A stretch of DNA of 64,000 bases from an uncultured Dehalococcoidia bacterium (GCA_964371095.1 CAYJMJ010000008.1:8278-72277); one strand, 5' to 3'; counted from the first letter of the stretch, positions 9,569 through 12,286 are shown. Notes: a model not told the origin generated them from the sequence alone. Numbers and translations are program-made.

Positions 9569-10258
9569 TCACACGACCCACGCCGCGACGACGGCGAAGT
9601 GGATTGCGCTGCCGGCAATAACGAACGCGTGGAACACCTCGTGGTAGCCGAACACGCGCGGCCAGGGGTCCGGGCGGCGCCGCGCGTACACGACTCCGCC
9701 AATCGAGTACATCGCCCCGCCAACGATCATCAACAGGATCGCGGGCGGCGCGAGCGACGAGACCACCTGCACGACCGGAATGATGCCGATCCACCCCAGC
9801 GCCATGTAAAGGGCCACGCCCAACGTGCGGGGCGCGTCCGGCCAGACGACCTTGAGCAGCGCGCCGACGCCGGCAAGCGACCAGGTCACGGACAACATCG
9901 AGATACCCCAGGCGTTGCTCAACACAACGAGGCAGAACGGCGTGTACGTGCCGGCAATCAACACGAAGATCATCGCGTGGTCGACGCGTTTCCAGACCCG
10001 CCGCAACCCATGCGGCCATGGCGCGAGGTGGTAGTTGGCGCTCGAGGCGTAGAGGAGGATCAGGCTCGTCGCGAAGATCGCCGCGCCGACGTAGCGTTTC
10101 GGCGAATCGGCGAGCAGCAGCAACACCACCAACGCGAACGGCGCCGCAATCGCGACGATCAGGTGCGAAACGCCGCGCAGAATCGGCCGTGGCTCCGCTG
10201 TGACGGAGTTCGGCGTGCCCTGCCCGGATCGAGCGAGTTCTTGGCCCATAACGCTCAC
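9569..10258 (-). CDS. Hemolysin III / PAQR family membrane protein
   Basis: 'SANYH', 'RVDHAMIFVLIAGTYTPF', 'YMALGW', 'FGYHEVFHAFV'; about 7 hydrophobic segments. Confidence 0.92.
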   Translation of the reverse strand: MSVMGQELARSGQGTPNSVTAEPRPILRGVSHLIVAIAAPFALVVLLLLADSPKRYVGAAIFATSLILLYASSANYHLAPWPHGLRRVWKRVDHAMIFVLIAGTYTPFCLVVLSNAWGISMLSVTWSLAGVGALLKVVWPDAPRTLGVALYMALGWIGIIPVVQVVSSLAPPAILLMIVGGAMYSIGGVVYARRRPDPWPRVFGYHEVFHAFVIAGSAIHFAVVAAWVV

Positions 10259-10593
10259 TCGGGTTCGGGGCCAGCAGCACCGCCGGACGGCGGGCGCATG
10301 AACGACTGTAGGAACGTGTCCGGCCGCAGGCTCAGGAGTGCCTCCGACCAGAGGAGATAGCGCCGGAACGTGTCCGTGCCCATCCGCATCAACTCGACCT
10401 GGAAACGCATGGATTCGGCGCGCGCGCCGAGGAACTCACCCAGCGCCAGCATCGCTTTGCTCTCCGACTCCCACACCTTCTGGTAGTTCTCGACGAACGT
10501 GATCATGTCATCGCCCGCCTCGATCAGGTCGCTTATCCGAGGCAGGTGCGGCCTGCGTGCCCGCGACCCGCCGCGCTCGCGTACTTCCGCCAT
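10255..10593 (-). CDS. Hypothetical helical protein, 112 aa
   Basis: SD GGAGG before ATG 10593; stop overlaps the hemolysin III start (GTGA); no recognisable motif. Confidence 0.55.
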   Translation of the reverse strand: MAEVRERGGSRARRPHLPRISDLIEAGDDMITFVENYQKVWESESKAMLALGEFLGARAESMRFQVELMRMGTDTFRRYLLWSEALLSLRPDTFLQSFMRPPSGGAAGPEPE

Positions 10594-10677
10594 GGTTTCG
10601 TCCGCCTCCGTCGTGACGCATGCCGCGCGGGCCTGCCGCGCCCCCGCGTGGATCAGGCTCACGGTAATCGTATGCGA

Positions 10678-11610
10678 TCAGCGGGGATCGCCGCCCGCCC
10701 CGCCGGGAACTGCTTCGGTGCGCACAGTGGCGACGAACGGCAGGTTCCGGAATCGTTGCCGGTAATCCAGCCCGTAGCCTACGACGAACTCGTCCGGTAC
10801 CTCGAAGCCCACGTACTCGAGCGGCAGGTCGACGAGCCGCCGCACTCGCTTGTCGAGCAGCGCGCACACCGCGAGGCTCGCGGGCTCGCGTGCCCGCAGT
10901 TGCTTCAGCAGGTGGTTGAGCGTCATGCCGGTGTCGACGATGTCCTCGACGATCAGGACGTCGCGCCCGGCGATGTTCTCGGTCAGGTCCTGCACGACGC
11001 GCACCGCCCCGCTGCCATCGCCCTCGTACGACGAGATCGTCATGAAATCGATGCTCACCGGGAGCGCGATGTGGCGCATCAGGTCCGCCATGAAGCAGGT
11101 GACGCCCTTCAGCACGCCGACGAGCAGCAGCTCGCGTCCGGCGTACGCCCGCGCGATCTCGCTGCCCAGCTCACTCAAACGCCGCTCGATCTCCGACGCG
11201 CTGTACAGCACTTCGTGTACGCTCATCTGCTCCTGCTCGTTGACGACGCCGATGCCGTATTTCGTCAGCAGGCTCAGGTAGTCGCGCTTGTACAGCAGCT
11301 TCACGTCGACGTCGGGATAGATCTCCCGCATCCGCCGAAGCTTCCGGTGCTTGTCCGTCACAAGACCCTGCTTCAGAGTGGTCAGCTCGATGTAGAGGTC
11401 CAGATCGACGAGGTAGAAGTCGGGCGAAAACGCCTCGAGAATGCGGCCGTCGTCACCGCGCTGGAGCGGAAACGTGCGCGGCTCGTACTGCCATCGTACG
11501 CCGTAGAAGTCGAGGAGTCGGGCGAACTCCTCCTCGCTCTCGTGAGCAAAGCGCGCCTCCTCGATGGTGGATGGAGCCGGTGAGCGTGCTTCAAAGGGGC
11601 GGGGGCTCAT
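10678..11610 (-). CDS. hpt: Hypoxanthine phosphoribosyltransferase fused to an N-terminal PD-(D/E)XK-like domain
   Basis: C-terminal 'VGVLKG', 'LIVEDIVDTGMTL', 'FVVGYGLDY'; N-terminal 'FAHESEEEFARLLDFYGVRWQYEP...PDFYL...IELTT'. Confidence 0.88.
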   Translation of the reverse strand: MSPRPFEARSPAPSTIEEARFAHESEEEFARLLDFYGVRWQYEPRTFPLQRGDDGRILEAFSPDFYLVDLDLYIELTTLKQGLVTDKHRKLRRMREIYPDVDVKLLYKRDYLSLLTKYGIGVVNEQEQMSVHEVLYSASEIERRLSELGSEIARAYAGRELLLVGVLKGVTCFMADLMRHIALPVSIDFMTISSYEGDGSGAVRVVQDLTENIAGRDVLIVEDIVDTGMTLNHLLKQLRAREPASLAVCALLDKRVRRLVDLPLEYVGFEVPDEFVVGYGLDYRQRFRNLPFVATVRTEAVPGGAGGDPR

Positions 11611-11617
11611 GCGATGC

Positions 11618-12286
11618 TCAGGTGATCCCCTGCACGATGTTCTGTATGGAGCCTTCAACCTGCTCCATCAGCTCGCGCGGCGGGGTGTCAGGCTTCGGCG
11701 CGACGGTCGGAGACATCAGGTAGTCCTCGAAAGCGCCGAGGACGGTCAGCACGAGCTGCTTCGCGAGGACGTCGATTGCCGCGGTGCGCAGCAGGCCCTG
11801 TGCGGCGTAATACCTCAGGATGCGCGCCTCGGCCCGCTCCCAGCGCTCGACGAGGATGCGATACTCCTCGCTCGCGACCGGGTCCTCGGCCAGCGCCTCG
11901 ACCATCAGCACCTTGAGGAGGTCGCGGTTCTGGTAGATGAAGTTGAGCGCGCTCGAGGCGATGGCCGGGATGACCTCTTCGGGCCCAAGCGTGATCTCGG
12001 CGCGTTCAAGCCCTGCCAGGACGGCGGTGAATCCGCGCTCTTCGATTAACGCTTCGAATAGGTCACGCTTCGATGCGAAGTGGTAGTAGATCGCGGCATC
12101 GGTGATGCCGGCCGCCTGGGCGATGTCGCGCACGCTCGTGCGCACAAAGCCCTTCTCCGAGAACAGCCGGAGGGACGCGTCGAGGATCTGCTTGCGCGTG
12201 TGGGGGCCGCGGCGCAGCTTGCGCGGCCGAGCCGCCGGCGACCCGGTCGCCGCACGGAGAGCTTCCGGGGCCGTCGCGATATCCAT
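11618..12286 (-). CDS. TetR/AcrR family transcriptional regulator
   Basis: 'TRKQILDASLRLFSEKGFVRTSVRDIAQAAGITDAAIYYHFASKRDLF' HTH. Confidence 0.95.
   Translation of the reverse strand: MDIATAPEALRAATGSPAARPRKLRRGPHTRKQILDASLRLFSEKGFVRTSVRDIAQAAGITDAAIYYHFASKRDLFEALIEERGFTAVLAGLERAEITLGPEEVIPAIASSALNFIYQNRDLLKVLMVEALAEDPVASEEYRILVERWERAEARILRYYAAQGLLRTAAIDVLAKQLVLTVLGAFEDYLMSPTVAPKPDTPPRELMEQVEGSIQNIVQGIT

Follow-up and report, generated by a model that had tools for sequence, protein, structure and literature searches.

PurR combines a winged helix-turn-helix (wHTH) domain with a phosphoribosyltransferase (PRT) fold, PyrR is an RNA-binding uracil phosphoribosyltransferase (UPRTase), and database entries hold fusions labelled 'bifunctional TilS/HprT'. 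In Bacillus subtilis, tilS and hprT are translationally coupled, and the TilS-HprT complex binds DNA and acts at the ftsH promoter (PMC8152036). Endonuclease I of phage T7 (gp3; PF05367; PDB 1fzr, 1m0d, 2pfj, 3cae) cuts four-way DNA junctions. It is an intertwined, domain-swapped dimer (PMC3424549), and a cellular branch of the endonuclease I group was already known, since a 2012 survey of PD-(D/E)xK proteins had assigned proteins of Dehalococcoides and Thermomicrobium to that group (PMC3424549). Here, we analysed a 64,000-nucleotide stretch of DNA (the window) from an uncultured Dehalococcoidia bacterium (GCA_964371095.1, CAYJMJ010000008.1:8278-72277) and focused on one open reading frame (ORF), in which a domain of the endonuclease I type is joined to a hypoxanthine phosphoribosyltransferase (HPRT).

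The comparison with these systems revealed likeness and difference in each case. The N-terminal domain shares with T7 endonuclease I, the sole solved protein that it matched by sequence, a helix, strands, a PD motif, an ExX motif and a basic helix in the same order, and E20, D55 and E65 of the phage enzyme correspond to E26, D64 and E75 of the domain. However, the domain scores below the Pfam gathering threshold, has an invariant Thr in place of K67, and occurs as a single copy in cellular genomes, where its link is with HPRT and not with phage recombination. The C-terminal 170 residues carry the residues and fold of canonical bacterial HPRT (TIGR01203; Salmonella typhimurium, 1j7j; Thermoanaerobacter tengcongensis, 1r3u; Bacillus anthracis Hpt-1, 6d9q), but the protein has an N-terminal nuclease-like domain of ~125 aa and belongs to a separate HPRT clade. 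TilS-HprT offers a parallel in that the N-terminal side of an HPRT is linked, by coupling or by fusion, with a nucleic-acid-handling or, here, putatively nucleic-acid-handling protein for an unexplained reason, whereas TilS itself is a PP-loop tRNA-modifying enzyme unrelated to the domain, and tilS lies on another contig here. With PurR and PyrR, the protein shares a PRT domain and a proposed nucleic-acid function, and by analogy the partner HPRTs that keep the motif for 5-phosphoribosyl-1-pyrophosphate (PRPP) while their catalytic residues vary may be comparable; it nevertheless lacks a wHTH, falls below the PyrR cut-offs and has intact HPRT catalytic residues; any resemblance would be functional only. 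In the literature searched, we found no published description of this domain paired with HPRT; unlike the cellular endonuclease I branch, the HPRT linkage, the Lys-to-Thr change and the dedicated HPRT lineage are not mentioned there.

The fusion ORF

The minus-strand ORF translated into 310 codons without interruption, and the codons of E26, E75 and T77 were confirmed on the raw bases (Table 1). An initial annotation, made from the sequence alone, had singled out the motifs 'YEP', 'PDFYL' and 'IELTT' and a complete HPRT joined to them in frame; the motifs are present as Y42-E43-P44, P63-D64-F65-Y66-L67 and I74-E75-L76-T77-T78, and the HPRT model TIGR01203 is matched within the same uninterrupted frame. 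M1 is nearly invariant and the lengths of the 119 homologues listed fall within 301-321 aa, which makes the ATG at 11610 the true start. The results further showed that 1687 protein clusters match the N-terminal part of the ORF, that PF00156 is present in all 119 full-length homologues listed among the best 120, and that the same continuous domain-HPRT frame recurs in 38 independent genome loci, which together rule out chance or faulty assembly as the origin of the fusion. The ORF thus encodes a genuine protein of two domains; two separate genes, which the annotation had named as an outcome that would overturn it, are at odds with a single frame conserved across homologues. The interdomain linker is predicted to be flexible, and the full-length model gave no confident packing of the two domains.

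Table 1. Features of the fusion ORF and its neighbours (window coordinates).
Feature	Position	Strand	Description and basis
Whole ORF	10678..11610	(-)	310 aa + stop: endonuclease-I-like domain, linker, HPRT
PD-(D/E)xK domain, T7 endonuclease I lineage ('NUC')	11251..11553	(-)	residues 20-120; sequence, profile, AlphaFold2 (AF2), Foldseek
E26, helix 1 carboxylate, aligned with T7 endonuclease I E20	11533..11535	(-)	alignments; conserved 81/81
P63-D64, 'PD' motif, aligned with T7 P54-D55	11419..11424	(-)	invariant 81/81 and 150/150
E75-L76-T77-T78; E75 on T7 E65, T77 on catalytic K67	11377..11388	(-)	E75 and T77 invariant 81/81 and 150/150
K87-H88-R89-K90, start of core helix 2	11341..11352	(-)	conservation; helix position from predicted models
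Interdomain linker	11221..11250	(-)	residues 121-130; pLDDT (predicted local distance difference test) <50 for residues 122-128, full-length model
HPRT domain	10711..11220	(-)	residues 131-300; TIGR01203, PDB 1j7j, Foldseek
PRPP / 5'-phosphate motif with catalytic Asp, E222-D223-I-V-D226-T227-G228	10927..10947	(-)	alignment to 1j7j and 1r3u; conservation
TetR-family gene	11618..12286	(-)	PF00440 E 3.7e-20; stop 7 nt before the ATG of the fusion ORF
Unassigned 135-codon ORF	10255-10662	(-)	15-nt gap after the fusion gene
Hemolysin-III/PAQR (HlyIII) gene	9569-10258	(-)	overlaps the 135-codon ORF

Homology and fold of the N-terminal domain

The matches of the N-terminal domain as a single sequence were weak yet specific: T7 endonuclease I (PDB 3cae) at E 8.5e-4, phrog_945 at E 1.2e-6, and PHROG families named 'endonuclease' and 'Holliday junction resolvase' at 1e-6 to 8e-5. 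The Pfam model PF05367 gave E 5.6e-3 and 16.7 bits (gathering threshold 29.1); among 150 family representatives, clustered at 50% identity, 14 matched it at E<=1e-3 (best E 4.1e-6). A profile of 81 sequences, built from homologues in the fetched genomes, reached T7 endonuclease I at E 2.9e-5 for 3cae and 7e-3 for 2pfj and 1m0d, and neither the domain nor the profile matched any other solved family at E <1. Neither Pfam nor NCBIfam holds a model for the domain.

The AF2 model built from the 81-homologue alignment (pLDDT 84.6; predicted TM-score, pTM, 0.78) displayed the element order helix, strands, helix, strand, helix and the alpha-beta-beta-beta-alpha-beta fold of a PD-(D/E)xK core. Foldseek matches in the PDB were nearly all PD-(D/E)xK nucleases (PspGI, Vsr, Bax1, AbaSI, Can2) and weak (best E 9.6e-3), while 51 viral models matched at E<=1e-3, including several annotated 'Endonuclease I', DUF559/Vsr-like or 'Holliday junction resolvase'. 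T7 endonuclease I itself was absent among the PDB matches of the domain model, probably because a compact monomer was modelled whereas the chain in the crystal is domain-swapped. The restriction-endonuclease fold foreseen for the N-terminal ~100 residues thus agrees with both the AF2 model and Foldseek, and a non-nuclease fold is not what these methods point to. TnsA, proposed as the likeness in the same annotation, did not hold as the nearest relative: TnsA 1f1z ranked only 31st in Foldseek (E 0.37, TM-score 0.37) and gave no sequence match, against the profile E of 2.9e-5 for T7 endonuclease I. Homology and predicted fold thus identify residues ~20-120 as a PD-(D/E)xK domain that derives from the lineage of phage T7 endonuclease I.

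Conservation of the active site

To describe the active site, we compared the 81 genome sequences, from about ten phyla, with the 150 representatives. E26, D34, E43, D64, E75, T77, K87 and K90 were invariant in the former; E43, P63-D64-F65, E75, T77, K87 and K90 were invariant in the latter, with E26 nearly so. The Thr noted in the annotation at the Lys position is T77. The domain also contains one very basic helix, K87-x-R-K-x-R-R-x-R. Because E26, D64 and E75 are conserved together with T77, K87 and K90, the site looks remodelled, not decayed.

In Pa4535 (PDB 1y0k, motif PD-EXX-K), the catalytic Lys is supplied from helix 2 (PMC3424549). The domain is similar in that Lys is gone from strand 3 and conserved Lys residues stand in the adjacent helix 2, but no sequence relationship between the two is detectable and the helix position of K87 and K90 is predicted only. 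By this analogy, we infer that K87 and K90 are candidates for a relocated catalytic Lys.

The HPRT domain

Residues 134-296 scored 201.3 bits against the equivalog model TIGR01203 for HGPRTase (cut-off 150). The HPRT half was 44-52% identical to solved HPRTs (PDB 1j7j, E 3e-51), and Foldseek aligned it with 2geb, 3o7m and 5knx at E 4e-23 to 8e-23 and a root-mean-square deviation of 1.4-1.9 Å; TM-scores for the HPRT structures matched were 0.85-0.94 (2geb, 3o7m and 5knx on target, 0.87-0.92). Loop I (L167-K168-G169), loop II (S193-S194-Y195), the purine-binding K254, the stacking F275, the Mg-binding D282 and R288 are all intact. Judged by these residues, the HPRT half is complete, with all canonical catalytic and PRPP-binding residues. 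PyrR family models gave ~14-25 bits (cut-offs 138-268 bits), and no helix-turn-helix domain was found in the protein.

A whole-genome search (genome 95.5% complete) found no second HPRT above the cut-off, and therefore the fusion protein must carry any HPRT activity of the organism. Because its residues are intact and it is the sole HPRT of this 95.5%-complete genome, the protein is predicted to be an active HPRT.

Distribution and linkage to HPRT

A search of a library of 1.8 billion proteins returned 1656 representative clusters with the domain (E<=1e-3), and the stand-alone form, which is probably actinobacterial, matched >8000 clusters. The initial annotation had placed the domain in other Chloroflexota and Actinomycetota proteins without an assigned function; the homologues and loci bear this out, showing a widespread domain to which no function is annotated. 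It occurs alone, before HPRT, after a cytidylate-kinase-like domain, after GAF and rarely after MerR. The cytidylate-kinase-like domain (PF13189) precedes it in 25 of the 150 representatives and has a Walker A motif GSGG, without Lys; the GAF-domain-HPRT form of Dehalococcoidia is 473 aa long. These GAF and kinase-like N-terminal partners suggest a regulated activity.

To assess the linkage, we examined the 80 best genome loci, of which 78 were resolved. They came from about ten phyla (Chloroflexota, Armatimonadota, Acidobacteriota, Bacillota, Atribacterota, Latescibacterota, Methylomirabilota, Actinomycetota, Planctomycetota and a Patescibacteria-labelled bin). The results showed that HPRT was fused or adjacent on the same strand in 75/78 resolved loci: the domain was fused to HPRT in 38, was accompanied by a separate same-strand HPRT gene in 18, formed a kinase-like-domain fusion followed by HPRT in 18, and in one locus the kinase-like domain, the domain and HPRT were three genes; three loci had no HPRT within the flank. 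Stop and start codons overlapped (ATGA, GTGA or TGATG) in 11/32 split loci. In an even sample of 201 Chloroflexota genomes, 52 carried one strong copy of the domain, which was fused or adjacent to HPRT in at least 36 and clearly unlinked in six, the rest being unresolved or broken at contig ends. The domain was 59-90% identical across phyla and was more conserved than its partner HPRT (in one locus, L058, the domain was 64% and the HPRT 44% identical to the query). The query is thus the fused form of a conserved module composed of an optional GAF or P-loop-Lys-less cytidylate-kinase-like domain, the endonuclease-I-like domain and HPRT. The partnership with HPRT appears obligate and is probably stoichiometric.

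Several observations concern individual forms of the domain. JGI labels many stand-alone copies of ~190 aa (P0290, P0301, P0302 and others) 'hypoxanthine phosphoribosyltransferase', although they lack a PRT domain and match no Pfam model; the label was apparently transferred from fused forms. High-G+C stand-alone forms, probably actinobacterial, have long disordered C-terminal tails ending in Arg clusters such as RRRRGRR (P0134, P0145, P0157, P0164, P0166, P0170, P0202, P0209 and P0240; P0132, P0154 and P0180 are listed as tail cases as well), and an 'LSGTxGQ' motif is conserved in them just past the domain. Some domain-HPRT fusions have Arg-rich N-terminal tails instead. A few of the Arg-tail cases may be frameshift artefacts of high-GC DNA. 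In single members of the 150 representatives, putative fusions combine the domain with SMODS (a second-messenger nucleotide synthetase domain), PilO, SnoaL or an alpha/beta hydrolase.

One genome holds a partial second copy of the domain (G187:C56:40185-40313, L127 5186-5311; residues 2-44, E 7e-17); the ORF around it has 284 codons and no Pfam match, and the full copy is about 1 kb away. Weak matches (E 4e-11 to 6e-4) were found within frames of 913-2180 codons at G107:C19:57276-57542 and in other Chloroflexota (G058, G156, G198, G174 and G047); these may be more distant endonuclease-I-like domains of large proteins. In a Dehalococcoidia genome of 1.5 Mb on a single contig, the GAF-domain-HPRT gene directly follows thrS, infC and rplT on the same strand (G021:C1, L131 3952-8467), and a second, stand-alone HPRT lies ~40 kb away.

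A dedicated HPRT lineage

Two HPRTs were present in 29/52 Chloroflexota genomes with the domain compared to 12/128 without it, and a separate second HPRT was present in 12/17 domain-carrying genomes of other phyla. In a maximum-likelihood tree of 129 HPRTs, all 86 domain-linked HPRTs fell into one clade (support 94/89). Four genomes encode two HPRTs and have the domain elsewhere; in each, one HPRT joined this clade, and the other was among the 36 sequences on the opposite side of the tree, the rest of which were unlinked HPRTs of five phyla. Three more unlinked HPRTs, two from Atribacterota and one from Armatimonadota, branched just outside the linked clade. Monophyly of the 86 linked HPRTs was not rejected by the approximately unbiased (AU) test (p 0.38). 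The sampling of canonical HPRTs in this tree is modest, and the eight copies of the four genomes were assigned after seeing a tree. Partner HPRTs cluster largely by phylum, and the domain has one copy per genome. A quick tree had been read as making partner HPRTs each phylum's ordinary HPRT, a reading dropped once unlinked copies of other phyla were added. These phylogenetic results make a strong but not final case that the partner HPRTs are a distinct lineage travelling with the domain.

All 31 HPRTs not adjoining the domain were canonical at the equivalents of K254, S194, Y195 and D282, and the query's own clade was canonical throughout at these positions. The Mg-binding Asp was replaced in three linked HPRTs of Actinomycetota. 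Only two weak positions, I192 and P263, separated partner from canonical HPRTs.

Genomic context

On the same strand and with a gap of only 7 nt, tetR and the fusion ORF are probably co-transcribed. A TetR gene was upstream in 17/75 related loci, all in the query's own clade, and HlyIII was found downstream in 12/84 flanking ORFs scanned (73 downstream neighbours and 11 ORFs inside split modules), again in the query's clade only. Actinomycetota modules had MerR, a bifunctional nuclease and gcvT nearby, and loci with an unlinked domain had mixed neighbours (rpoB, MFS, CNNM, Vut_1, FhaA). PilZ-domain genes were downstream of the module in 4 loci.

No riboswitch or other Rfam element was present in 18 module loci, in which only two tRNAs were found, and inverted repeats upstream of the module, as expected of an autoregulatory or cruciform site, did not exceed the shuffled expectation. 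PADLOC gave no defence match for P0001, nor for the GAF and stand-alone forms; a kinase-like fusion gave only marginal PD-DEXK motif matches (E 6e-4). Phage or defence neighbours were absent at the query locus and at related loci. A role of the domain as a replacement for tilS in a tilS-hpt-ftsH cluster was rejected, as tilS and ftsH are on other contigs of this genome. There, ftsH is split over two contig ends (G000 C15:3-857 and C29:3-962), which leaves its neighbourhood unreadable, and tilS is on the short contig C133.

Discussion

The reading that we tentatively place first, at less than even confidence, is that the domain is a remodelled, still-active Mg-dependent nuclease or phosphodiesterase that acts on nucleic acid and is coupled to the ligand state of HPRT. 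An active phosphodiesterase is favoured because the invariant acidic triad, together with the invariant Thr and Lys, is hard to explain otherwise. The initial annotation had proposed a purine- or alarmone-gated nuclease or nucleic-acid-binding module, or recycling of bases from nucleic-acid turnover; such functions are plausible and agree with the obligate link to HPRT and with the sensor-type GAF and kinase-like partners. Under this proposal, the domain would be a divalent-metal-dependent phosphodiesterase whose substrate would be nucleic acid, probably structured or branched, and by analogy with T7 endonuclease I it would probably work as a dimer. E26, D64 and E75 would hold the metal, K87 or K90 of helix 2 would supply the missing Lys, and T77 and T78 would contact the phosphate. 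The domain and the HPRT domain would form a 1:1 complex, in which occupancy of the PRT site by PRPP, inosine or guanosine monophosphate (IMP/GMP) or the alarmone (p)ppGpp would either promote or restrain nucleic-acid cleavage, or be governed by it. Ordinary hypoxanthine/guanine salvage would, in this genome, also fall to that polypeptide.

Several results weigh against an active nuclease. The canonical catalytic Lys (T7 K67) is replaced by Thr in 81/81 genome sequences and 150/150 representatives, and the domain is near neutral overall (median isoelectric point, pI, 6.3), which is weak for a DNA enzyme. In 2pfj, the T7 endonuclease I chain crystallised with a junction, alignments place Ala at the K67 position; we take this chain to be a K67A mutant that binds junctions without cleaving them. 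Across phyla, no conserved neighbour beyond HPRT was found, and neither a substrate nor a target site points to a nucleic-acid pathway. The partner proteins add to this. The residue equivalent to the purine-binding K254 is Lys in 63/86 linked HPRTs and otherwise Arg, Met or Cys, and loop II (query S194 and Y195) also varies, mainly in the kinase-like and actinobacterial forms (L044-L082), while the PRPP motif is kept in these altered HPRTs, a pattern as in PRT-fold sensors such as PurR. The cytidylate-kinase-like partner likewise lacks its catalytic P-loop Lys, which hints at a set of ligand-binding pseudo-enzymes.

Some of these features speak for a non-cleaving regulator or 'trigger enzyme', possible in our view and nearly as likely as an active nuclease, in which the domain would only bind DNA or RNA, with PRPP, purine nucleotides or (p)ppGpp as the signal read by the PRT domain, and gene expression would be controlled as by PurR, PyrR or TilS-HprT. 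It would account for a catalytic Lys replaced in all members and for partner HPRTs of other phyla that, as in PurR, lose the purine-binding Lys and loop II residues and keep the PRPP motif. The separate canonical HPRT left for salvage in the two-HPRT genomes counted above, both in other phyla and, more often with the domain than without it, in Chloroflexota, fits as well, as do the sensor-type N-terminal partners (GAF, kinase-like) and the Arg-rich tails on some Chloroflexota and Actinomycetota homologues, and HPRT has a precedent in DNA binding (PMC8152036). However, a domain that does nothing but bind would not usually have five invariant acidic residues or a pI close to neutral. Upstream of the module, neither a riboswitch nor a conserved inverted repeat resembling an operator was found, and the neighbourhood showed no conserved regulon. 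Moreover, the query HPRT appears fully catalytic by its residues and is the sole copy.

An unlikely alternative is a role at the protein level, without a nucleic-acid partner: the domain would be a dimerisation or allosteric clamp, or a sensor of a small ligand or metal, that sets the oligomeric state, activity and (p)ppGpp/PRPP sensitivity of HPRT. The intertwined, domain-swapped dimer of T7 endonuclease I (PMC3424549) would suit such a clamp, and the dimer-tetramer equilibrium of HPRT governs its inhibition by (p)ppGpp (PMC6783271). Strict gene order, fusion, translational coupling and the co-evolution of the domain with a dedicated HPRT lineage are also in keeping with it. A structural role, though, would not require that the metal-binding triad be invariant; the domain exceeds in conservation the HPRT that it would serve and is encoded away from any HPRT in six Chloroflexota genomes, and the linker is predicted to be flexible without confident packing.

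More improbable still is a small-molecule phosphohydrolase, in which a site of E/D/E, TT and K would hydrolyse an HPRT-linked phosphoribosyl or pyrophosphate compound (pyrophosphate, PRPP, (p)ppGpp or a nucleotide). In favour of it, each recurrent partner (HPRT, kinase-like, GAF) is a binder of nucleotides or small ligands, and the domain has kept its carboxylates and an invariant Thr-Thr pair. To our knowledge, however, PD-(D/E)xK enzymes act almost exclusively on nucleic acids. In the surveys of this fold that we consulted (PMC3424549, PMC1189080), no precedent for a small-molecule substrate was found.

An artefact or a mobile or defence element (a misassembled or frameshifted gene pair, or a phage-derived nuclease or toxin beside hpt) has only the phage origin of the nearest characterised relatives in its favour and is effectively excluded by the same frame in 38 loci, the 1687 protein clusters, one copy per genome with partner HPRTs largely following phylum, and the lack of PADLOC matches and of phage or defence neighbours.

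Taken more broadly, and as a tentative proposal, the domain and its dedicated HPRT lineage may constitute an unrecognised ancient two-part system of about ten phyla, in which the ligand state of the PRT (PRPP, GMP/IMP or (p)ppGpp) gates either nucleic-acid cleavage, as in the nuclease that we prefer, or regulatory binding. If so, this would be the third independent PRT-based device for nucleotide status after PurR and PyrR, and in bacteria like this one all salvage by HPRT would also have passed to the two-part system.

HPRT is a drug target as well as a textbook enzyme, and (p)ppGpp is known to target it. Even so, a fixed and very conserved partner accompanies it in thousands of bacterial sequences, which come from about ten phyla. 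Carriers include streamlined Dehalococcoidia and, probably, freshwater Actinomycetota. Recognition of the domain would correct the JGI mislabelling of stand-alone copies that lack a PRT. Solving its role would explain the existence of a separate HPRT lineage, and may show that nucleic-acid metabolism or gene control is tied to purine or alarmone status in a new way.

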